Under the pieces are notes generated by a model. It did not search any database, was not told the origin of the DNA, and worked only from the letters and a program-made list of their open reading frames with translations. Below, piece after piece: positions 30,555 through 40,691 of a DNA stretch of 64,000 nt (its first letter is position 1; each line of letters opens with the position of its first letter). The translations under genes were made by a program, and so were the position numbers. The stretch is from Thermoanaerobaculia bacterium. Lineage in GTDB: Bacteria > Acidobacteriota > Thermoanaerobaculia > UBA5066. The DNA lies in the NCBI GenBank assembly GCA_038245905.1, contig JBBRRY010000002.1, forward strand, positions 32,001 through 96,000. Reading direction: 5' to 3'.

Positions 30555-32336
30555 GTGCAACAACGAACAATCACGATCGCCATGGTCGGCGCGGGTGGCG
30601 ACGGAATCGTCACGATGGGCGACGTCCTCTCGCAGGCCGCCGCGCGCGATGGGCTCAACGTCCTGAAAACCGAGGCTTACGGCCCGCAGATTCGCGGCGG
30701 CGAATCCTCCTGCGTCGTCCGCCTCAGCGGCGACCCGATCTATGAATCGGGCGACGGCGCGGACGTCCTCGTCGTATTCAGCTGGGCCGACTTCAGCCGT
30801 TTCAAAGGCGAGTGCACCCCCGCGAAGAATGCCGTCGTCCTCTCGGACGAGGCCGATCCCGTCGCGCGCACGCCCGAGGACCTCGGACTCGGCGCGGACG
30901 CGGTCTGGATCAAGCTGCCGTTCGGGAAGCTGTCCACGGAGTCGGGCGCGAAGGGATCGAAGAACCTCGTGGGCCTCGGCGTTCTCACGGCTCTCTTCGG
31001 CCTGCCCGCGGAGACGCTTCGCCGCGCGGTGGTCTCCCGCTTCGGGAAGAAGAAGGCGGCCGTCGGCGAAGGCGCCCTGAAGGCGTTCGAGGCCGGCTTC
31101 CTTCTCGGTCAGACGCTGCCTCCGATGCCGGAGCGCCGGCTCGGCTTCACGCCGGGGCCCGCCAAGCTCATCATGTCGGGCAACGAAGCGACGGCGATCG
31201 GCGCCCTGCACGCGGGCTGTCGCTACTTCGCGGGCTATCCCATCACGCCTTCCACCGAAATCCTCATGTTCCTCGACGAGTGGCTTCCAAAGATGGGCGG
31301 CTCGCTCGTTCAGACGGAGGACGAGCTCTCCGCCATCGGCGCCGTCCTCGGCGCGTCGTTTGCGGGCCAGAAGGCGATGACGGCCACCTCCGGCCCCGGG
31401 CTCTCGCTCATGACCGAGATGCTCGGCCTCGCGTCGATGGCCGAGCTCCCTTGTGTCGTCGTGAACGTGCAGCGCGGGGGCCCGTCCACCGGCCTTCCCA
31501 CGAAAAGCGAGCAGTCGGATCTCTTCCAGGCGGTCTTCGCCGGACACGGCGATATGCCGCGCGTCGTTCTGGCCTGCTCGGACGTGGAGGACTCCTTCCA
31601 TACGACCGTCGACGCCTTCAACATCGCCGAGGAGTACCAGATCCCCGTCATCGTCCTCTCCGATCAGCTGGTCGCGGGCCGGCGGGAAACTTTCGACCCG
31701 GCGTCCCTCGTCCACGCCGTGCGCGAGCGGCGCCTTCCCACCGACGAGGAGCTGACCGACTATCACCGCTACCGGGAGACCCCCGACGGCGTCTCGCCGA
31801 TCGCGCGCCCCGGGATCAAGGGCGGGATCTATCAGACGAACGGCCTCGAGCACGACGAAGAGGGCAGCCCCGGCTCCGGGTTCGACCTTCACGAAGTGAT
31901 GAACGCGAAGCGGTACCGCAAGCTCATCCCCATCCGGGACGCCCATACGTTCCACCGGCGTTACGGCCCAAAAGACGCGGATATCGGCATCGTGTGCTGG
32001 GGCTCGTCGAAGGGTGCCGTGCGCGAGGCCGTGCGGCGCGCGAACGAACGCGGCCTGAAGGTCGCCGCCTTCGTGCCGCAGATGATCTATCCGTTCCCGA
32101 AGAAGGAATTCGAGGCCTTCCTGAAGGGTCTGAAGCGCATCCTCGTCGTCGAGCTCTCGTACGCTGCGCAGTTCCACAAGTACCTCCGCACGTTCCTCGA
32201 CCTACCCGCCGATCGCACGCACGTCTACAAGAGGTCGGGCGGCAAGAATCTGACCGTCGCCGAAGTGGACGCGGAGCTCGTCGCGCTCTCTGTCGCCCTC
32301 GCGGCCGAGCGCGCCCAGGAAAAGGTGTCCGCATGA
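30555..32336 (+). CDS. korA: 2-oxoacid:ferredoxin oxidoreductase alpha subunit (gamma-alpha fusion)
   Basis: GAGGDG, YGPQIRGGES, AGYPITPST, TATSGPGLSLM, QRGGPSTGLPT. Confidence 0.93.
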   Translation: MQQRTITIAMVGAGGDGIVTMGDVLSQAAARDGLNVLKTEAYGPQIRGGESSCVVRLSGDPIYESGDGADVLVVFSWADFSRFKGECTPAKNAVVLSDEADPVARTPEDLGLGADAVWIKLPFGKLSTESGAKGSKNLVGLGVLTALFGLPAETLRRAVVSRFGKKKAAVGEGALKAFEAGFLLGQTLPPMPERRLGFTPGPAKLIMSGNEATAIGALHAGCRYFAGYPITPSTEILMFLDEWLPKMGGSLVQTEDELSAIGAVLGASFAGQKAMTATSGPGLSLMTEMLGLASMAELPCVVVNVQRGGPSTGLPTKSEQSDLFQAVFAGHGDMPRVVLACSDVEDSFHTTVDAFNIAEEYQIPVIVLSDQLVAGRRETFDPASLVHAVRERRLPTDEELTDYHRYRETPDGVSPIARPGIKGGIYQTNGLEHDEEGSPGSGFDLHEVMNAKRYRKLIPIRDAHTFHRRYGPKDADIGIVCWGSSKGAVREAVRRANERGLKVAAFVPQMIYPFPKKEFEAFLKGLKRILVVELSYAAQFHKYLRTFLDLPADRTHVYKRSGGKNLTVAEVDAELVALSVALAAERAQEKVSA

Positions 32337-33211
32337 GCGAAGCCGTGACCCTTCCCGAATTCAAGCCCGTCGACTACAAGACCGATCTCAAGCCCGTCTG
32401 GTGCGCCGGCTGCGGCGACTTCGGCGTCCTGACCGGCCTCTACCGGGCGCTCACCGAGCTGCAGGTGAAGCCATGGGAGACCGTCGTGGTCTCGGGCATC
32501 GGCTGCTCGTCGCGCCTTCCCGGTTACGTCGACACGTTCGGCGTGAACAGCCTCCACGGCCGCGCCCTCCCGCTCGCGGCGGGAGTCAAGGTCGCGCGCC
32601 CGGACCTCACCGTCATCGCGGTGGGCGGCGACGGCGACGGTCTCGCGATCGGCGGCAACCACTTCATGCACGCCGCGCGGCGAAACCTGGACGTCACGTA
32701 CCTCATCATGGACAACGAAATCTACGGCCTCACGAAGGGCCAGGCCGCGCCCACGACCCCCGCCGGCGACAAGACGAAGTCCACGCACTACGGCAACCCC
32801 GAGCCCTCGGTCGACCCCTGCGAGCTCGCGATCTCGTTCGGAGCGACGTGGGTCGGGCGGGCCTTCTCGGGCGACCTCAAGGGAACCGTCGAGCTCATGG
32901 TGAAAGCCCTTTCGCACAAGGGCTTCGCGTTCCTCAACATCATGTCTCCCTGCGTCACCTGGCGCGGCGACGACCAGTTCAAGGCCCTCAAGGCTAAGCA
33001 GAGGCAGCTTCCCGAGAATCACGACGCCTCGTCGCGCCCGGCGGCGCTCGCATTCACTCGCGAGAAGGAGTTCGTGACGACCGGCGTCCTCTACGACGTC
33101 TCGGAGCCCACGCTCCTCGACCGCCTCGGGACCGTCAAGGTCAACGCGCTCGCGGGCAAGCCGCAGTCGACCGTCCAGGACATCATCAAGAGCTTTCAGC
33201 CGTCGTTCTGA
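32333..33211 (+). CDS. korB: 2-oxoacid:ferredoxin oxidoreductase beta subunit
   Basis: WCAGCGDF, SGIGCSSR, LHGRA, GGDGDG...DNEIYGLTKGQ (TPP-binding), SPCVT; ATGA overlap with the alpha subunit. Confidence 0.94.
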   Translation: MSEAVTLPEFKPVDYKTDLKPVWCAGCGDFGVLTGLYRALTELQVKPWETVVVSGIGCSSRLPGYVDTFGVNSLHGRALPLAAGVKVARPDLTVIAVGGDGDGLAIGGNHFMHAARRNLDVTYLIMDNEIYGLTKGQAAPTTPAGDKTKSTHYGNPEPSVDPCELAISFGATWVGRAFSGDLKGTVELMVKALSHKGFAFLNIMSPCVTWRGDDQFKALKAKQRQLPENHDASSRPAALAFTREKEFVTTGVLYDVSEPTLLDRLGTVKVNALAGKPQSTVQDIIKSFQPSF

Positions 33212-33273: not shown

Positions 33274-33717
33274 TCATGCCGGGATCAATTCGAGGGTTCC
33301 GCGCTCCGCTTCGATCACGGCCGCGACGGGAATACCCCGGTCGAACGTGGCGAGTCTCCCCTTCCTGCTCGTTGTAAGACCCAGTAGGTAGACGTCCGTC
33401 AGCTTCTGATGAGACACGGGCGCGGTCCACCTGAAAAGACCGGGATCGCGAAGCGAGACTTCGTCCGGCCAGAAGACGTGCCCGCCGCTCGCGCAGAATT
33501 CGCCTAGGCGGCGGACGATTGCTCCCCGCGTCTCGGGGCTGGCCATGTAGGCCGGGTTCGAGAGAATCCGCACGAGTCCGTTCTCGGTGATCGGACAGGT
33601 GGCCCAGCCACTCTCGCGGTTTTCGCCAAACCACCGGTGAGCGGCTTCGTGGTGCACGTGATCCGGATCGAACAGAGCGACGAGGACGTTGACGTCGAGG
33701 AGGGCGACGCGCGTCAC
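33274..33717 (-). CDS. vapC: VapC-family PIN-domain toxin
   Basis: LLDVNVLVALF..H.HH, TENGLVRILSNP, TDVYLLGL, LATFD. Confidence 0.9.
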   Translation of the reverse strand: MTRVALLDVNVLVALFDPDHVHHEAAHRWFGENRESGWATCPITENGLVRILSNPAYMASPETRGAIVRRLGEFCASGGHVFWPDEVSLRDPGLFRWTAPVSHQKLTDVYLLGLTTSRKGRLATFDRGIPVAAVIEAERGTLELIPA

Positions 33718-33962
33718 GCCTCGTCCCGGAGCCTGTTGACGAGAGCCATCGTCGGGCGAACGCTCCCCTTCGGCCGGCGCGGAATCAGCGGAACACCGTT
33801 GCGCACCCGCGGCGCTTTTCCCGGCTCGAGCGCTTTCCGCGCCAAGTCCGACAGAACCCGGCCAGCTGTGGTCGAGCGGTTGGCCGCGATTTCCTTCGCC
33901 GCCTGCAGGACATCGTCGTCGATCTCGAGTGTCGTCCTCACGCGGACATCATCACGCATCAC
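33714..33962 (-). CDS. vapB: VapB-type (RHH) antitoxin
   Basis: RTTLEIDDDVLQAAKEIA...AGRVLSDLARKAL...RNGVPL; 4-bp overlap with the toxin; start may be slightly downstream. Confidence 0.85.
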   Translation of the reverse strand: MMRDDVRVRTTLEIDDDVLQAAKEIAANRSTTAGRVLSDLARKALEPGKAPRVRNGVPLIPRRPKGSVRPTMALVNRLRDEA

Positions 33963-33994: not shown

Positions 33995-35509
33995 TCAGCG
34001 TCCTCGCATCTCGTAGACGAAGCCCATGCCGGGCGTCTTCCTTGCCTCGAGGTCTGCGCGGAAGACGCGGGCTGCGTCCACGTCGGGGAACTCGCCCACG
34101 ACGACTCGATACCAGACGCCCTTCTCCCCGAGATCCACTTCGACCGCGCGCGCGGGCGACCCCAACGCCGCGCCGAGCTTCAGGGCTTCCTTCGCCGCGC
34201 TGTCGCGGTCTTTCGTCGAAGAGAAGTGAATGACGTAGACAGCCGACTTTCCGGACCAGTCGGGCGTCAGGAGAACGGCCGCCTTTCCCCGCGGCACCTC
34301 GGGCGCGGGCTTTGCCGAAGGAGCCGCTGGCTTTGCCGCTAGAGCCACGGGCTTCGCAGCCACGGCCGGCGCGGCCGTCGGGACCGCGACGGGCACCGGA
34401 ACTGTTACAGGGGCCGGCTCGGGTTTCTTGCGCGCGACGAGCGGTGTCGGCTTCACGATCTCGTTCTTGAAGACGTACTCCCGGACGGCCCACGCGAGGC
34501 CAGCCCCGACCGCGAGGACGAGCCCAACGGCCACGAGCCAGCCTCTCCCGCTCGAACGACGGGGCGGCGGGGGGAGAGGATCGGCCGCCTTGAAGTGGAA
34601 TTCCTCCATCGCCGGCTGCGTGTTGTCCTCGAGCAGCTCGGCGAGGCGCGGCGTCTCGGGCGCGGACCTTGCCGCCGGCTCGTGAGGAGGCACGAGCGGG
34701 ATCGACGGGGCGGACGCGACGGCGGGGCGGGGAAGGGGTTTCGGAGCCTCGGTGAGAAGGTCGTCGAGGTTCTCGTCTGTGAGTCTGGGGCGCGGCTCGC
34801 CGAATGGCAGAGTCCCGCTCTCGGCGGGCGCTTTCGATTCGGGTGCGTACGTGAGCGGTGGCGAGTAGCTGACGGGCGGTGGCGCGCCGGCTGGAGGCGC
34901 AGGCGTAACCGCCGGCGGCCGCGGCGGGCCGGACGAAGTCTCCGGCGCGTACGCGAGGGGCGCGGGCGCCGGCACCCGGTCGCGCTCGGGCTCGATCAGC
35001 ACAGAGATCTCGAGAGGACCGCGCGATCTGCGCGGGATCGGCAGGATCGCCGACCGGAACGGCGCGTCGTCGGGCTGAATCGGCAGGTCTTTTTCCCAGT
35101 TCAGATCCGAACGGGAGGCCAGATCCTGGAAGGGATCGTCGGCCGCCGCCGGCTTCGCGGGCGGCTGCGGATGCTGCGTCGTCGGCGATCCCGGCGCCTC
35201 GCGCGCGGGCGCCGGCCGGGCGGGAAAAATGGGCATGGGCGGCGGCTCGGGCTCCGAAACGGGAATCCCCGACCCGTCCCGCTCGAGCTGGAGGCGTGCC
35301 CGCCGTGCGAGCACGTCGAGCGGCGCCGCCTCGAATCCCTGCTTCACCTTCGCCAGCTCCTCGGCGACCACGCTCCGCGCCGCCTTGAACAGCACGGCCG
35401 GATCCGCCGAAACGGTCTTGGCAAGCTCGCGCACGACGTCCGTCACTGACGGAAGCATTCTCTTCCTGGGCTCTGGATCGCGCGGAAAACCTGTGTCGAG
35501 CGGACTCAT
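33995..35509 (-). CDS. Bitopic SPOR-domain protein (FtsN/DedD/DamX-like topology) with a small helical N-terminal domain and a long Pro-rich cytoplasmic region
   Basis: ATGA overlap with the actin gene; TM GWLVAVGLVLAVGAGLAWAV; C-terminal YVIHFSSTKDRDSA...GVWYRVVVGEFPDVDAARVF SPOR pattern. Confidence 0.8.
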   Translation of the reverse strand: MSPLDTGFPRDPEPRKRMLPSVTDVVRELAKTVSADPAVLFKAARSVVAEELAKVKQGFEAAPLDVLARRARLQLERDGSGIPVSEPEPPPMPIFPARPAPAREAPGSPTTQHPQPPAKPAAADDPFQDLASRSDLNWEKDLPIQPDDAPFRSAILPIPRRSRGPLEISVLIEPERDRVPAPAPLAYAPETSSGPPRPPAVTPAPPAGAPPPVSYSPPLTYAPESKAPAESGTLPFGEPRPRLTDENLDDLLTEAPKPLPRPAVASAPSIPLVPPHEPAARSAPETPRLAELLEDNTQPAMEEFHFKAADPLPPPPRRSSGRGWLVAVGLVLAVGAGLAWAVREYVFKNEIVKPTPLVARKKPEPAPVTVPVPVAVPTAAPAVAAKPVALAAKPAAPSAKPAPEVPRGKAAVLLTPDWSGKSAVYVIHFSSTKDRDSAAKEALKLGAALGSPARAVEVDLGEKGVWYRVVVGEFPDVDAARVFRADLEARKTPGMGFVYEMRGR

Positions 35510-36525
35510 GCCGACAGCGGCTCCCAGTCTCCTTCGGGCGCGTCCAGCGCGATGGCAAGGCCGCCATTCGAGCCCGCGAAGACCGGATCGTCCACGGTGC
35601 GCACCCGGCCCCCGCCGAGCTCGGAAAGCGTCTTCTCGAGCGCGGCCGCGAAACCGGGCAGCTGCGAGCCGCCGCCCGCGAGGACGATGCTGTGCTGCAC
35701 CTTTTCCTGGTATTCCGGCTCGACCTTGGAGAGGAGGTCGAGCATCGTCTCGGCGATGGGCCCGACGATGCTCTCGCAGGCCTTCTTCATCTCGGCCGTA
35801 ATGTCGACGTCCGCCGGCTTCCCCTTCACGGGGAACCGCACGACGACCGGACCCGGCGGGCTCCCGACGAAGCTGTGCTTCTCCTTCCACTCGCGCACCA
35901 TGTGAACCGAGATACGACCGTCGGGGTTCTTCGCCTTGACGAGCATCATGAGCTGCTCGTCGACGGAGTCTCCCGCGTGCGTGAGCGTTCGCTGGTCGTC
36001 GTCGGTCGGGTAGCGGCCGTTCATGACGCAGAAGTCCGTCGTGCCCGCGCCGATGTCGATGATCATGGTGTGAAGCAGCGCGTCCATTCCGTATGCCACG
36101 GCGAACGGCTCGGACACGATGAGCAGGGCGTCCGCGATCCCCTTCACCGCCGCGCGCAGGTGCTGCCTCGAGACGCGCAGCGCCTCGGCCGGCACGCCGA
36201 CGACGGCCTGCACGGCCTGGCCTTCCTTCCGGCCGGCCAGCGAGATGAGGTGCTTCAGAAGCTCGTGCACGGCCTCCTCGTCCTTCACGGAGCCCTGCTT
36301 GATGAGACCGCGCTCGAGCGGGCGGTGCAGGTCGAGCATGGGCCGGTTCTCGAGCGCCTCGGCGCCAAAGAGGATCGGCTTTTTCACGACCTTGCGGGCC
36401 ACCATGTCCAGGGGCCAGCCCACGTAACTCTCCACGACGTGATGCGCGCCGTTCGAGGCCGTGATCGCGCTCCGCGACGTGCCGAGGTCGATCCCGACGT
36501 GGAGAACATCCTTCTTCCCGCTCAT
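35506..36525 (-). CDS. MamK-like actin-family ATPase
   Basis: GIDLGTSRS, ESYVGWPLD, RPLERGLIK, VVGVPAEA, IVSEPFAVAYG, IIDIGAGTTDFC..G.YP..DDQ.TL..AGD.VDE, KEKHSFVG, LAGGGSQ. These match MamK (SVVGYPKD, VSEPFMVGYG, DIGAGTTDIC, KEQFSFVG) better than MreB (IEEPMAAAIG, DIGGGTT). Confidence 0.88.
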   Translation of the reverse strand: MSGKKDVLHVGIDLGTSRSAITASNGAHHVVESYVGWPLDMVARKVVKKPILFGAEALENRPMLDLHRPLERGLIKQGSVKDEEAVHELLKHLISLAGRKEGQAVQAVVGVPAEALRVSRQHLRAAVKGIADALLIVSEPFAVAYGMDALLHTMIIDIGAGTTDFCVMNGRYPTDDDQRTLTHAGDSVDEQLMMLVKAKNPDGRISVHMVREWKEKHSFVGSPPGPVVVRFPVKGKPADVDITAEMKKACESIVGPIAETMLDLLSKVEPEYQEKVQHSIVLAGGGSQLPGFAAALEKTLSELGGGRVRTVDDPVFAGSNGGLAIALDAPEGDWEPLSA

Positions 36526-36526
36526 G

Positions 36527-37519
36527 TCAACTCCGATTGGAGGGCGGATGGTTCCGCGCCTCCGCGTACGCGAGGATTCCGTTCGAAAGCGCCCGTGCGA
36601 TCTGCTGACGATACCCGGGTTCCCGGAGATGACGCGCCTCTTCGTCGTTCGACACGGTCGAGACCTCCGCGAGAATGCCCGGCATCTCCGTTGCGATGAG
36701 GACGACGAACGGCGCGCTCCGGACACCGCGGTCCTGGAGCCGGGGCACGAAGGGCCGGAGCGAGGTCACGAGGCCGCCCTGAACGGACTCGGCGAACTTC
36801 CGGGATTCGCCCTGACGGGCGTCCGCGAGGACTCCCTCGAGAAGGCGCCGGAAGTCGGCCATCGTGTAGCCCGAGGAGCGGTTCTCGTCTCCCGCGAGCT
36901 GCTGCACGTGAGGATCGGTCGTGGTGCCGAGAAAATACGTCTCGACGCCGCGCTTGTCCTTCACCGAGGGGAGCGAGTTCACGTGAATCGAGACGAAGAG
37001 ATCGGACTTCCTCGCGTTCGCGAAGGCCACGCGATCCTTCAACGACAGGGTCGCATCCGCCTCGCGGGTCAGCGACACGGCGATCTTCTGGGCGACGAGA
37101 AGGTCCCGAAGGCGGCGCGCCACGTCGAGCGTCACGTCCTTTTCGGCGATGCCGGAGGCCGTCGCGCCCGGATCCGCCCCGCCATGCCCCGGGTCGATGA
37201 CGACGGAGCGCACTTCGAGACGGAAGAGCGAAGGCTCGAGGCCGTTCGGCGCGTTGATGACACTTGCGGGCGCCGCAGGCGCCGCGGACGGAGACGACAC
37301 GACGAGAACGTCCGTGCGCTCGCCGCGCCCCGTGGTCAGGGCGTTGATGGAGAGGAACAGAGCCAACGGCACGACGATGAAAATGGACGTCCGAAACAGT
37401 ATGCGGCGCACGCGGTCCGAGCGCCGGAGGCCCTTGGGAAGCCGCCCTTCGATGACGTCCACGTTCTCGCGGATCGCGTCCTTGAGGATTGACTGCCGGA
37501 GTCGGTTCACGTTGGCCAT
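36527..37519 (-). CDS. Membrane-anchored N-acetylmuramoyl-L-alanine amidase (Amidase_3)
   Basis: VVIDPGHGGADPGA, EKDVTLD, RVAFAN, LFVSIHVNS, GVETY, APFVVLI..MPGILAEV; N-terminal TM segment. Confidence 0.93.
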   Translation of the reverse strand: MANVNRLRQSILKDAIRENVDVIEGRLPKGLRRSDRVRRILFRTSIFIVVPLALFLSINALTTGRGERTDVLVVSSPSAAPAAPASVINAPNGLEPSLFRLEVRSVVIDPGHGGADPGATASGIAEKDVTLDVARRLRDLLVAQKIAVSLTREADATLSLKDRVAFANARKSDLFVSIHVNSLPSVKDKRGVETYFLGTTTDPHVQQLAGDENRSSGYTMADFRRLLEGVLADARQGESRKFAESVQGGLVTSLRPFVPRLQDRGVRSAPFVVLIATEMPGILAEVSTVSNDEEARHLREPGYRQQIARALSNGILAYAEARNHPPSNRS

Positions 37520-38295
37520 GAATGTCCCAAAAAGGGTAGCACCTGACCGCTCTTCGACTGGAGGAGCCAGCGTGTCGCGGGGTGCTGGGGGTCCTTCAGG
37601 ACCTTCGCGGGCGGACCTTCCTCGACGACGACGCCGTCCGCGAGAATGACGACCCGCGTGGCGAAATCGAGCACGAAGTCGTCGTCGTGCGTCGCGACGA
37701 CGAGCGTCCTGCCGTCCTTCTCCACGAGCGCCGCCAGCGTTCGTCCCAGCTCGTTGCGGCGCGCCGGATCGAGGGAGGCCGTCGGCTCGTCCATCAGAAG
37801 GAGAGGCGGCTCCATCGCGAGCGTGCGCGCGATCGAGACGCGCTGAGCTTCCCCGCCCGAGAGCTCGCGCGGCAGCGCGCGCGCGTGCCGCTCGACTCCG
37901 AGGGACGCGAGCAGCGCGAGCGCCCGCTCTTCGGCGGCACCTCTCGCGAGCCTGGCGACATGCAAGGGAGCGAGCGTCACGTTGTCGAGGACCGAGAGGT
38001 GCTCGAAGAGGCCGTGGTACTGGAAGACCATCCCGACGCGCGTACGCAGCGACCGAAGCGTCTCCGCGGAGGGCGGCGGCCCGGGCTTGAGCGCGACGCC
38101 GCCCACATCCACCGACCCCGCGTCGAATCCCTCGAGGCCGACGACTGCCCGAAGGACGGTCGTCTTTCCGCCGCCCGAGAGCCCCATGAGCGCGAGAAGC
38201 TCACCGCGCGCGACGGAAAGCGTCACGCCGTTCAAGACGCCGGCCGCGCCCCGCGAGAGGCATAGACCGTCGATCGCGAGGACGGATGCGTTCAC
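37507..38295 (-). CDS. Polar amino acid ABC transporter ATP-binding protein
   Basis: GLSGGGKTT, GMVFQ, LSGGEAQRV, LLMDEPT, ATHD. Confidence 0.92.
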   Translation of the reverse strand: MNASVLAIDGLCLSRGAAGVLNGVTLSVARGELLALMGLSGGGKTTVLRAVVGLEGFDAGSVDVGGVALKPGPPPSAETLRSLRTRVGMVFQYHGLFEHLSVLDNVTLAPLHVARLARGAAEERALALLASLGVERHARALPRELSGGEAQRVSIARTLAMEPPLLLMDEPTASLDPARRNELGRTLAALVEKDGRTLVVATHDDDFVLDFATRVVILADGVVVEEGPPAKVLKDPQHPATRWLLQSKSGQVLPFLGHSWPT

Positions 38296-39840
38296 CTATG
38301 AGGCCGCCTTCCAACGTCCCTCGAGTCGTCGCGCGAGGCGCGCGAGAGGGATCGACATCGCGAGATACAGGCCCGCGCACAAGGCGCCGGGGACAGCCCA
38401 GCTCGCGATGTTCGTCGCGAAGATGGCCGTCTGCTTCGTGAGCTCGACGACTGTCACGACGGAAACGAGCGACGAGTCCTTCAGGAGAGCGACGAAGTCG
38501 TTCGTCATGGGAGCGAGCGCGAGCCGGAAGGCCTGCGGCCCGCGAACGAGGCGGAGGACTTGCCCCTCCGTGAGGCCGAGCGTCCGCGCGGCCTCGAGCT
38601 GTCCCTTCGGCACGGCCTCGAGCGCGCCCCGGTAGATCTCGCTCTCGTACGCGGCGTAGTTCAGCCCGAGGCCGAGAAGCGCCGCGACGAACGCGGGCAG
38701 GCGCACGACGGACGAGAGCCCGTAGTAGAGGACGAAGAGCTGGAGGAGAACCGGCGTCCCGCGCGTGATCTCGACGTAGGCCGTCAGGAGCAGGCGGACC
38801 GGCGCGTTCCCGTAGACGCGCCCGCTCGCGATCGCGACGCCGAGGGCGACCGCCAGCGCCATCGCGAGGCACGAAAGCGAGATCGTCACGAAGGCGGCCT
38901 TCAGCAGAGAAGGGAGATAGGAGATGACGAGGGAAAGAGATGAAGAAGAGAAGATCTTCTTAGAAGGTGAAGAAGGCAACGGGAGCTTCTCGCCCGCCCG
39001 AAGCGTTTCAGCGGCGCCTGCAGCCTCTTTACCATTCAAAGAAATCTCTCTCTTCTCTTCCTCTCTTTTCTCAAATGCCGCCTGCTGGTCGTCCCAGACA
39101 TTCCACTTCTCGAAGATCCTTCGCAGCGTCCCGTCCTTCATCGCCGCGACGAGAATTGCGTCGATGCCGTCGCGGAGCGCCGCGTTCTTCTTCGAGAGGA
39201 CGCCGACGTACCACCCCGTCGAGGCGGTGCCGGGCTGGATCGCGATTCCCGCGACGCGGCGCACCGAGCGCGCCGCGAGGACGTGGTCGAGGAGGACGGC
39301 GTCGAGGCGGCCGTTCGCGAGGTCCTCGTATGGATGGACGTCGTCGTCGTAGGAGACCGGGAGGATCCCGTCCGTCTTCCCGGCCGCGACGAGCAAGTCC
39401 CATGCGATCGTCCCCGCGAGCGTGCCAACCCTCCGGCCACGGAGTTCCGCGAGCGTGCGTAAGCGCGAAACGTCGGCCTCTCGCACCGTGAGGACCTCGC
39501 GAAACTCGAAGTACGGGGCCGTGACAGAGAGTGAGGCGCGCCGCTGGGGGGTGTCTTCGATTCCCGAGAAGCCGATGTCGAAGTCGCCGCGCGCGGCCGA
39601 CTGGTCCAGCGACTGAAATGCGACCTGGACGAAAACAGATGTTCTCCCGAGACGTCTTGCGACGAGATTCGCGATCTCTACGTCGAAACCGCGCACCTTC
39701 GAGGGATCGGCCGGGTCGGCTTCGACAAAGGGCGCGCCCCCTTCCGCGTCGCCGCCCCAGCGGAGCACGAGCGGATCCGGCACGGCCGCGCGCGCCGCGC
39801 CGGGGAGCAGGAGGATCCCGGCGAGGACGGCCCGGATCAA
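38296..39840 (-). CDS. Polar amino acid ABC transporter, fused substrate-binding domain and permease
   Basis: TTG start overlapping the psd stop; WGGDAEGGAPF, GFDVEIA, GRLDAVLLD; permease YVEITRGTPVLLQL, AAYESEIYRG, GQLEAARTLG, LLKDSSL. Confidence 0.9.
   Translation of the reverse strand: MIRAVLAGILLLPGAARAAVPDPLVLRWGGDAEGGAPFVEADPADPSKVRGFDVEIANLVARRLGRTSVFVQVAFQSLDQSAARGDFDIGFSGIEDTPQRRASLSVTAPYFEFREVLTVREADVSRLRTLAELRGRRVGTLAGTIAWDLLVAAGKTDGILPVSYDDDVHPYEDLANGRLDAVLLDHVLAARSVRRVAGIAIQPGTASTGWYVGVLSKKNAALRDGIDAILVAAMKDGTLRRIFEKWNVWDDQQAAFEKREEEKREISLNGKEAAGAAETLRAGEKLPLPSSPSKKIFSSSSLSLVISYLPSLLKAAFVTISLSCLAMALAVALGVAIASGRVYGNAPVRLLLTAYVEITRGTPVLLQLFVLYYGLSSVVRLPAFVAALLGLGLNYAAYESEIYRGALEAVPKGQLEAARTLGLTEGQVLRLVRGPQAFRLALAPMTNDFVALLKDSSLVSVVTVVELTKQTAIFATNIASWAVPGALCAGLYLAMSIPLARLARRLEGRWKAAS
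38952..39046. repeat. Inverted pair of an AT-rich TTC-N3-GAA motif with purine/pyrimidine flanks (locus A)
   Basis: AGATCTTCTTAGAAGG at 38952 and CCATTCAAAGAAATC at 39032; the latter is identical to 49476-49490. Confidence 0.6.
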
Positions 39841-40691
39841 GACGACAGGCTCCCGAGCCGCTCCCCCATCTTCACGGGCCCGAGGCCGCGCGCCGGATTC
39901 CACTCCACGGCTCTCGGCCCGCCGACGAGCAAAACGACGGTCGATCCGAGCTCGAAGACGCCGAGATCGTCGCCCGGCGCGCACGCAACGGAGGCGACCT
40001 CGAGGCGGCCGCGCCGCGGCAGCGCGCGCCCCGCGAGCCAACGCGGGTCGATCACGACGCCGCCCACGTGCGTCGCCGCGACCATGACAGCGGCCACGAC
40101 GAGTCCTTCGGCCTCCCGGACGCCACGCGCAATCCAGTAGGCGCGCCGGTTCCTCACGTAGAGCCGCGGCGTCGCGGCCGTGGAGGCCGCGTTGACAGGC
40201 CAGAGCTCCCCTTCCACGCGTCCGACCGCGACGCACGCTCCCGAGAGCGGGACGTGAATGCGGTGGTAGTCCTTCGGGGCGAGATACAGCGCCAGGTAGC
40301 GGGCGCTGGTGAACTCGGATGCGCAGGCGTCGTCGTCGAGGAGCTCGGCGAGGCGGTACGGCAGGCCTTTGGCCTGGATGAGCGTGCCCTCCTCAACCCG
40401 CCCCTCGGCGATCACGAGCCCGTCGATCGGCGAATTGATTCCGCCCGCCACGACGGGCGCTTGCGGCCTCAGACCCGGCCTCAGCCGCCGCGTGAAGAAA
40501 TCGAGAAACGACACGTAGGTGCCGAGATCCTTCTCCGCTTCGTCGAGGTTCGCGCCGAATGCGGCCGCGAACCGGCCGAGGAGCGGGCGGCGCAAGCGCA
40601 CGGGGAGGCGCAGCCGGGCGAGCGCTCCCACCGCGAGAGAGCCTGCCTTCTTGGGATAGAGCCGAAGGAGGCGGAGATCCGCTACGTCCAT
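39837..40691 (-). CDS. psd: Phosphatidylserine decarboxylase proenzyme
   Basis: FFTRRL, SPIDG, QAKG..Y, YLAPKDYHRIH, LGVFELGSTVVL (LGST autocleavage site). Confidence 0.93.
   Translation of the reverse strand: MDVADLRLLRLYPKKAGSLAVGALARLRLPVRLRRPLLGRFAAAFGANLDEAEKDLGTYVSFLDFFTRRLRPGLRPQAPVVAGGINSPIDGLVIAEGRVEEGTLIQAKGLPYRLAELLDDDACASEFTSARYLALYLAPKDYHRIHVPLSGACVAVGRVEGELWPVNAASTAATPRLYVRNRRAYWIARGVREAEGLVVAAVMVAATHVGGVVIDPRWLAGRALPRRGRLEVASVACAPGDDLGVFELGSTVVLLVGGPRAVEWNPARGLGPVKMGERLGSLSS

Follow-up and report, generated by a model that had tools for sequence, protein, structure and literature searches.

Gene organization of the amidase-actin locus

A cluster of three consecutive minus-strand genes, for a peptidoglycan amidase, an actin-like ATPase of the MamK family and a SPOR-domain protein, lies at positions 33995-37519 of the stretch of DNA considered here, a window of 64,000 nucleotides from a Thermoanaerobaculia bacterium of the phylum Acidobacteriota (assembly GCA_038245905.1, contig JBBRRY010000002.1, positions 32,001 to 96,000). 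A preliminary description of the cluster, made from the letters alone, had viewed it as a wall-linked three-gene module outside the magnetosome context, in which the amidase marks a site on the wall, the SPOR protein reads the mark, and the proline-rich cytoplasmic part of the SPOR protein recruits the actin. Comparison of related loci, phylogeny and structure prediction retain the module, but point to the amidase, and specifically to its cytoplasmic N-terminal tail, as the conserved partner of the actin.

The amidase gene (36527-37519) is an open reading frame whose translation and Pfam matches indicate a bitopic N-acetylmuramoyl-L-alanine amidase of 330 residues, with a cytoplasmic tail, one transmembrane helix and a periplasmic Amidase_3 domain. 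The actin gene (35506-36525) encodes a protein of 339 residues, assigned by NCBIfam models, matches to solved structures and trees to a MamK-family clade whose members are linked to amidase genes. The third gene (33995-35509), read from its open reading frame and translation, encodes a bitopic, proline-rich SPOR protein of 504 residues. A single base separates the TGA of the amidase gene from the ATG of the actin gene (36525-36529), and the actin stop codon overlaps the SPOR start codon as ATGA (35506-35509); both junctions, as well as the order of the genes, are present in the sequence as first reported. The four actin motifs singled out at that time (ESYVGWP, SEPFAVAYG, DIGAGTTD and KEKHSFVG) were located at residues 32-38, 138-146, 157-164 and 214-221. 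The same -3 offset of the SPOR start is found in eight relatives (loci L049, L058, L061, L062, L065, L066, L068 and L072).

A MamK-family actin in a genome without magnetosome markers

The best NCBIfam model for the actin is MamK (NF040964), at 371.8 bits (372.2 in a scan of the whole genome), where the cut-off of the model is 400. Scores with other models were 217.3 bits for BeeR (cut-off 530), 72.7 bits for MreB (cut-off 293) and only 17.7-20.2 bits for FtsA. The nearest solved structures, 5ljw, 5jyg and 5ljv, match the protein over its full length (residues 5-337) at about 254 bits (E about 1e-74), followed by 8r2n at 155 bits and by MreB chains at about 46 bits. The first three, which carry the file label 'Actin-like ATPase', we take to be MamK, and 8r2n is presumably BeeR. 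By model score and by solved relatives alike, the protein is a MamK-family actin and not an MreB, as had been proposed. It is 41% identical to one named magnetosome MamK. Among 39 relatives the mean column identity is 68%, and conservation is very strong in the motifs that bind nucleotide and over most of the surface; the DLGTS, DIGAGTTD and GGGS nucleotide-binding motifs and Glu139 are invariant.

The host assembly (3.8 Mb in 113 contigs, 96.4% complete) was scanned with profiles for magnetosome genes. MamI gave no match, MamP reached 26.8 bits against a cut-off of 300, magnetochrome 20.1 against 30.4, and MamQ 84.4 against 250, the last being the level of ordinary LemA proteins. With none of the four over its cut-off in a nearly complete genome, the absence of a magnetosome cluster is borne out, and with it the placement of the module outside the magnetosome context. 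The earlier remark that no other mam or mreCD gene accompanies the actin thus stands genome-wide for these mam markers; mreC is present on another contig (C34), directly adjacent to a canonical mreB (487.5 bits, PF06723), and mreD was not searched for. The genome also holds two further Amidase_3 paralogues, 36% and 24% identical to the amidase of the cluster, and two further SPOR proteins that are more canonical than the one in the window, whose SPOR domain scored 30.8 bits in the genome scan. Given the separate mreB-mreC pair, the amidase paralogues and the additional SPOR proteins, the module adds to the usual wall machinery and does not replace it.

Conservation of the amidase-actin pair

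Related loci were drawn from three samples: 24 loci from genomes of the phylum, 80 from contigs representing one genome per species, every one of them recorded as a metagenome-assembled genome, and 80 from metagenomes, for which an alignment of distant relatives served as the query. A MamK-like gene (E 1e-40 or better) occurs in 25 of 301 sampled genomes of the phylum, the host counted, and in 19 of 26 other genomes of the same class. After removal of two duplicates, 94 unique genome-derived loci had at least 900 nucleotides of sequence upstream of the actin gene, and in all 94 an amidase gene lies directly upstream on the same strand. Among metagenome loci with at least 1000 nucleotides upstream, the amidase is present in 32 of 62 and absent from the other 30, and the two groups are separated by the actin itself: actins of the amidase-bearing loci are 48.5-72% identical to the window actin, those of the amidase-less loci 38.6-46.5%. 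All-against-all clustering of the open reading frames within 4.5 kb, in 140 amidase-linked loci, recovered the actin in 140 (with its antisense shadow frames) and the amidase in 137; the next largest cluster of neighbors covers 23 loci. The conserved core is the amidase-actin pair and not the SPOR gene. Every related locus with sufficient flanking sequence shows the amidase-actin order again, which places the arrangement far beyond chance. As for the idea that amidase-actin-SPOR synteny is conserved in other genomes, the amidase-actin part of it was found and the SPOR part was not, as a SPOR gene is present in only 23 of 138 unique loci.

Two trees agree with this division. In the first, built quickly by maximum likelihood from 129 rows with the host's own MreB as root and with support values from the Shimodaira-Hasegawa-like approximate likelihood ratio test (SH-aLRT), all 79 amidase-linked actins fall in one clade (SH-aLRT 100), with no unlinked row inside it. 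The clade comprises a subclade of actins at least 60% identical to the window actin (43 rows, support 100) and a subclade of actins about 50% identical (36 rows, support 92). When 10 proteins that are named MamK or come from magnetotactic taxa were added, in a second tree, the 27 amidase-linked rows formed a clade (99) apart from a MamK clade (100) made up of these 10 proteins and two metagenome rows. The window actin thus does not group inside the clade of named MamKs. Because members of the amidase-linked clade score 347-418 bits on the NCBIfam MamK model, while 8 of 10 unlinked actins that were scored reach its cut-off of at least 400, the linked clade belongs, by its sequences, to the wider MamK radiation, as a branch that has diverged slightly. 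Throughout this monophyletic subfamily the pairing is invariant, and by record names the subfamily extends over several phyla: the 80 closest genome loci are recorded as 72 Acidobacteriota, 5 Rokubacteria/Methylomirabilota, 2 Binatota and 1 'Deltaproteobacteria'. A cluster 50% identical to the actin, which may or may not share the pairing, includes a protein from a Nitrospira metagenome-assembled genome that NCBI names 'MamK family actin-like protein'.

These data also bear on the alternative that the adjacency has no functional meaning or that the actin was left over from a magnetosome cluster since lost. In its favor, the link between the genes is a computational one, and the best-matching NCBI model is, after all, MamK. 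Yet 94 of 94 genome loci and 32 of 32 metagenome loci show the linkage within one clade spanning 48-100% identity, the actin is under strong purifying selection, its clade is separate from the named MamKs, and MamI, MamP, MamQ and magnetochrome are not over their cut-offs in the host. This alternative is close to being refuted by synteny and must be regarded as highly improbable.

The 30 amidase-less MamK-like loci, all from metagenomes (among L139-L211), have no neighbor common to the whole set. Small groups of them share flanking open reading frames of about 340-370 residues, including four candidates without a Pfam family, and only two (L170 and L179) group with the named magnetosome MamKs. 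The MamK-like representatives further include many long forms of 700-1232 residues, with a C-terminal actin domain and an N-terminal part without a Pfam family (e.g., P0204, P0131 and P0140-P0151), as well as one fusion of 768 residues that joins FtsZ (Tubulin and FtsZ_C domains) to a MamK-like domain. Sequences related to the cluster were also seen in a soil RNA-library run (X20; 0.05 of sampled words), whose contigs are 80-95% alike over parts of all three genes. No X20 contig bridges a gene junction under a 31-letter rule, the best reaching 25 letters on the actin side, and carry-over of DNA is possible, such that these contigs are no evidence of co-transcription.

The amidase and its cytoplasmic tail

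The catalytic domain of the amidase (residues 106-316, 36572-37204) is matched by Pfam Amidase_3 with an E value of 6.7e-48. His112, Glu126, His179 and Glu285 are invariant in 39 amidase relatives and are presumably zinc ligands or the catalytic residue. The best solved relatives, AmiA (8c2o) and AmiB (3ne8), are colinear with the protein over residues 104-323, and the alignment with them runs through an insertion at about residues 200-262, whereas chains of the CwlV type align only to about residue 200. In AmiA, AmiB and AmiC the insertion holds an autoinhibitory helix. By alignment with these solved chains the window protein is of the AmiA/B/C type, and its own insertion may be autoinhibitory too. 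It stays below the equivalog cut-offs of all three families (AmiA, 118.5 bits against 400; AmiC, 106.9 against 700; AmiB, 76.8 against 532), and the AMIN domain that AmiB and AmiC carry was not matched in it.

Where the protein departs from AmiA/B/C, which are soluble enzymes of the periplasm, is at its N-terminus: some 40 residues form a cytoplasmic tail, and a single transmembrane helix follows. The helix is predicted at residues 40-61 (37337-37402) from a hydrophobic stretch that follows an arginine-rich segment, with a probable N-in topology. The tail is better conserved than what follows it, the mean frequency of the top residue being 0.51 in the tail, 0.43 in the transmembrane helix and 0.38 in the periplasmic linker. 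Its motif, approximately R-x-K-x-x-x-L-R-x-x-x-x-E-N-L-x-x-x-x-G, is kept in both subclades of the tree, and Asn19 is nearly invariant. A hidden Markov model of the tail detected only this amidase in the host genome (E 9.2e-14; next best 2.2). In the fetched loci taken together, the model gave 128 matches at amidase N-termini, the best match elsewhere having an E value of 0.49, and in the 30 amidase-less loci it gave none at E below 1. The helical motif at residues 4-25 (37445-37510), delimited by conservation, the motif model and the structure prediction described below, is proposed as an actin-binding peptide.

A predicted contact between the tail and the actin

The actin was co-folded with residues 1-42 of the amidase, each with its own alignment of 39 rows, in three runs accompanied by three controls. 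The runs scored 0.77, 0.78 and 0.77 and the controls 0.00, 0.00 and 0.02. The mark used for such scores is passed by 58 of 80 solved complexes and by 2 of 110 mismatched pairs, a calibration that is only rough for runs with alignments of their own. The three runs share at least 73% of their contacts, and the predicted local distance difference test (pLDDT) score of the partner is at least 63. On the tail, the contacts involve residues 4, 7-16, 18-20, 22-23 and 25, which is to say the conserved motif; on the actin, they involve residues 120-124, 134-151, 170-172 and 325-339, which from general knowledge of the actin fold we take to line the groove between subdomains IA and IIA. The amidase tail is accordingly predicted, by these models, to dock as a helix in the hydrophobic IA/IIA groove of the actin. 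The same groove is occupied by the helix of ParR on ParM and by WH2 on actin, and it takes part in longitudinal contacts of actin-like filaments.

This last property leads to a second alternative, in which the actin would form no positioning filament. It would work as a regulatory ATPase, monomeric or capped at its ends, and would use the amidase tail to switch the enzyme (for instance by way of oligomeric state or access of an activator). Since the predicted tail site also serves contacts between filament subunits, tail binding and polymerization could compete, and the AmiA/B/C-type insertion, autoinhibitory in those enzymes, makes a switch plausible. Set against this, the nucleotide motifs and most of the surface of the actin are strongly conserved, which fits a polymer, and its closest solved relatives, MamK and BeeR, are filament formers according to PMC11929497. 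A pure switch is considered quite unlikely.

The third gene and its replacements

The SPOR protein of the window is composed of an N-terminal three-helix domain, a cytoplasmic linker some 240 residues long with a proline content of 25%, a transmembrane helix, a periplasmic linker rich in proline and alanine, and the SPOR domain. The latter (residues 424-488, 34046-34240) is C-terminal, follows the single hydrophobic helix and is matched by Pfam with an E value of 5.4e-6 (27.1 bits; cut-off 21). The transmembrane helix is predicted at residues 323-342 (34484-34543), around a hydrophobicity maximum at residue 324, from which the topology is deduced. The N-terminal domain (residues 18-78, 35276-35458; iterated hidden Markov model and AlphaFold2) is modeled with helices at residues 22-32, 37-56 and 64-78 and a mean pLDDT of 78.5, and its model found neither a fold match in the PDB (best E 0.25) nor a usable match in the ESM Atlas. 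In 20 loci, the window included, this domain begins 21-74 nucleotides past the end of the actin gene; these 20 are every close relative (about 72-100% identical) with a contig that reaches far enough. A SPOR domain follows in 14 of them, and contig ends cut the other six.

A first search with tblastn and hidden Markov models, in 24 loci, had placed the SPOR protein in the same genus only, and the larger set of loci widened that range. A SPOR domain on the same strand, at most 2.5 kb downstream, is present in 23 of 138 unique amidase-linked loci and nowhere else in those loci (20 of 112 where at least 1500 nucleotides of downstream sequence are available). The 23 loci fall in three subclades whose SPOR proteins carry different cytoplasmic domains: the three-helix domain, a receiver (REC) domain, and a helix-turn-helix (HTH) domain in L120. 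For the receiver form, found in the subclade about 50% identical to the window actin, Pfam recognized Response_reg in four and SPOR in all of the five proteins scanned. The gene after the actin in L149, L153, L176, L178 and L194 encodes such a protein (receiver, acidic linker, transmembrane helix, SPOR), an unusual membrane-anchored protein resembling a response regulator.

In 20 other loci the pair is accompanied by a bitopic protein with a C-terminal beta domain, encoded after the actin gene in 7 and before the amidase gene in 13. Pfam PilZ was matched in all five of the beta-domain proteins scanned; the downstream forms L039 and L123 are without PilZ. The AlphaFold2 model of the beta domain has a pLDDT of 93, and its only matches of high TM-score are PilQ (3jc8_Qa; TMq 0.66, E 0.11) and AmiC (4bin; TMq 0.67, E 0.59), both of which carry AMIN domains. 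None of four full-length proteins matched Pfam AMIN at E 0.01, whereas two of 10 domains did so at E 0.003 and two of three further proteins at E 0.002-0.007; the name AMIN-like is kept because of the fold evidence, the sequence matches being sub-threshold. The PilZ-transmembrane-AMIN-like protein keeps its adjacency to the pair but switches sides by lineage, lying upstream of the amidase gene in L081, L092, L100 and 10 more loci and downstream of the actin gene in L037, L112, L129, L134 and L040. Altogether, a SPOR or AMIN-like neighbor is present in 28 of the 85 loci for which sequence on both sides is at hand. Other genes found next to the pair encode a transmembrane-anchored alpha/beta hydrolase, a GDSL hydrolase and a NUDIX protein. 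The first of these (Hydrolase_4 or Abhydrolase_1) stands after the actin gene in L044, L046, L051, L104 and others, from several genera, and could be another wall- or lipid-active client.

It is with these observations that the original view of the SPOR protein as the tether must be weighed. In that view the filament is recruited by the cytoplasmic part of the SPOR protein, and the amidase does no more than mark the wall, with no contact of its own to the actin. The overlap of the actin and SPOR genes as ATGA, repeated in relatives, speaks for such a role, as do the conserved and confidently folded three-helix domain just after the actin gene in 20 loci and the recurrence of SPOR proteins behind the actin gene in three subclades. 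However, most of the unique loci have no SPOR gene, the SPOR proteins of other lineages have REC or HTH as their cytoplasmic domain, and the three-helix domain has no fold relative that hints at actin binding, whereas the amidase tail is universal and passes the controlled co-fold. The SPOR protein as tether is therefore held to be unlikely. Two claims of the preliminary description are accordingly revised: what is conserved beside the actin is the amidase (137 of 140 loci) instead of the SPOR protein, and the element that is both universal and predicted to make contact is the N-terminal helix of the amidase, not the proline-rich part of the SPOR protein. The scheme in which the amidase marks, the SPOR protein reads and the actin is recruited stays plausible in broad terms, and a bitopic reader of the SPOR or AMIN-like kind recurs in separate subclades. 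Because a wall-reading bitopic partner recurs through independent combinations of domains, a functional link of these proteins to the pair can be argued, though outside the universal core.

Flanking genes

The start of the amidase gene overlaps the end of an ATP-binding cassette (ABC) transporter ATPase gene (37507-38295) by 13 nucleotides. The region upstream (37507-40236, minus strand) holds this ATPase gene, preceded by a gene in which an SBP_bac_3 solute-binding domain is fused to a permease. ABC-transporter genes recur upstream in only 8 of 140 related loci, so that their coupling to the amidase is local and outside the conserved unit. Directly after the SPOR gene (33274-33962, minus strand) are an open reading frame of 82 residues without a Pfam family (33714-33962) and, overlapping it by 4 nucleotides, one of 147 residues with a PIN domain (33274-33717, E 1.1e-5), a layout that is that of a VapBC-like toxin-antitoxin pair. 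Beyond these, on the plus strand (30555-33211), two long open reading frames (one of 593 residues; the next ending at 33211) appear by eye to encode the two subunits of a 2-oxoacid:ferredoxin oxidoreductase.

Proposed mechanism

The explanation favored here, with somewhat better than even confidence, is that the MamK-family actin and the bitopic AmiA/B/C-type amidase form a cytoskeleton-to-cell-wall module in which the actin steers wall cleavage from inside the cell. The core would consist of the amidase, with its catalytic domain in the periplasm, and the cytoplasmic actin-like ATPase, which by family probably polymerizes like MamK. Acting through the amidase tail, the actin would position, cluster or gate the enzyme and so direct cleavage of the wall from within. 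SPOR domains bind glycan stripped of peptides by amidases, and the SPOR protein of the window, similar in kind to DamX or FtsN, could bind the peptide-free glycan made by the amidase and retain or reinforce the machine at that site. Proteins of the REC-transmembrane-SPOR, HTH-transmembrane-SPOR or PilZ-transmembrane-AMIN-like kind would take the role of reader in other lineages, and the REC and PilZ domains suggest that the process is regulated, with phosphorylation or cyclic di-GMP as input. AMIN and SPOR domains target the septal wall in model bacteria and AmiA/B/C-type amidases split septa; because of these roles, septal or other local splitting of the wall (e.g., separation of daughter cells) is favored by analogy as the most likely process, carrying a little under half of the weight given to the module explanation as a whole.

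Several points weigh against this explanation. Polymerization, binding, amidase activity and localization are all inferred from sequence and models. The co-fold may have passed in part through likeness, because a helix in the groove resembles solved complexes of actins with their partners, and binding of the tail may be restricted to monomers or filament ends, because the IA/IIA groove is used in longitudinal filament contacts. At the predicted interface, residues particular to the amidase-linked clade show no significant enrichment (2 of 22 versus 9 of 317; one-sided Fisher p 0.15), the groove being largely conserved across the whole MamK radiation. The actin falls short of the NCBIfam MamK cut-off (371.8 versus 400 bits), and the trees are quick ones with SH-aLRT support only, a very long MreB outgroup branch and no MamK of the Magnetospirillum type. 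As for the readers, Pfam AMIN is sub-threshold at 17.0-18.6 bits (cut-off 20.5; E 0.002-0.007) in 4 of 13 proteins, and about two thirds of the loci lack the third gene or have another in its place, such that the SPOR part is not general.

Comparison with known systems

The nearest relatives by family are MamK and its adaptors MamJ or McaA/McaB. The actin belongs to the same family, and the filament would likewise be expected to be tied to a membrane-embedded client; here, however, magnetosome genes are absent, the clade is separate and below the NCBIfam cut-off, and the client is an amidase with its own conserved cytoplasmic tail in place of an acidic repeat adaptor. The FtsA-FtsN-AmiA/B/C loop of the E. 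coli divisome resembles the module in having a cytoplasmic actin fold, a bitopic SPOR protein and amidases whose product SPOR binds, and its self-reinforcing logic would match. It differs in that the actin here is MamK-like, the amidase is membrane-anchored and predicted to contact the actin, and all three genes stand in one putative operon; the SPOR protein of the window, with a cytoplasmic part of about 320 residues, is nearer to DamX than to FtsN. In the MreB-RodZ elongasome a cytoplasmic actin filament is also coupled through bitopic proteins to periplasmic wall enzymes, but MreB guides synthases, whereas the client here is a hydrolase, and the host keeps mreB-mreC elsewhere. The predicted contact itself recalls ParM-ParR, where the C-terminal helix of ParR sits in the groove of ParM at the filament end: in both, a short amphipathic helix of the client would lie in the IA/IIA groove. 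Here a membrane enzyme takes the place of the DNA-binding adaptor, the two systems are unrelated in sequence, and the amidase tail need not bind at filament ends.

BeeR, a tubular actin of Verrucomicrobiota, is likewise a MamK relative from non-magnetotactic bacteria, to which the article that describes it (PMC11929497) assigns no known function. It is a distinct family, on whose model the window actin reaches 217 bits against a cut-off of 530, and the disordered N-terminal domain given there as a hallmark of BeeR is missing from the window actin. In the passages covered, that article mentions neither amidases nor gene context. Among other articles, PMC7203096 has, in the part covered, a single mention of MamK, in an evolutionary claim, and in PMC13483887 MamK and amidase stand in unrelated places. 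In the library searched, no paper was found that joins MamK with an N-acetylmuramoyl-L-alanine amidase or describes such a module; the search did not extend to supplementary neighborhood tables. Actin-guided remodeling of the wall is known in kind, and sequences and models point to the amidase-actin module as an undescribed variant of it, with the putative function set out above.

In summary, MamK has been known almost only as the magnetosome actin, and the loci described here reveal a large, sharply bounded subfamily with a fixed client, a peptidoglycan amidase, together with a concrete predicted contact, a 22-residue helix with a nearly invariant asparagine in the IA/IIA groove of the actin. 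Actin, tail peptide and amidase domain are all of small size, and work on them in vitro would not require culture of the host. A broader reading can be offered only tentatively and is perhaps doubtful: that a MamK-type actin subfamily over several phyla constitutes a wall-splitting machine apart from MreB and FtsA, with an amidase held by its own tail, a SPOR or AMIN-like reader of the cut wall, and swappable REC, PilZ, HTH or three-helix domains feeding in phosphorylation or cyclic di-GMP signals on where and when to cut. On that reading, filaments of the MamK family would in general serve to position clients, and the magnetosome system would be only one specialization among them. Exchange of REC and PilZ domains on the protein that reads the wall hints that signals may control cell separation in soil and sediment bacteria that are abundant but uncultured. 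If the module explanation is true, then to our knowledge no earlier case is known in which an actin filament is coupled directly to a hydrolase of the wall and not to synthases, and the question of how autolysins are kept in place would gain a new answer.

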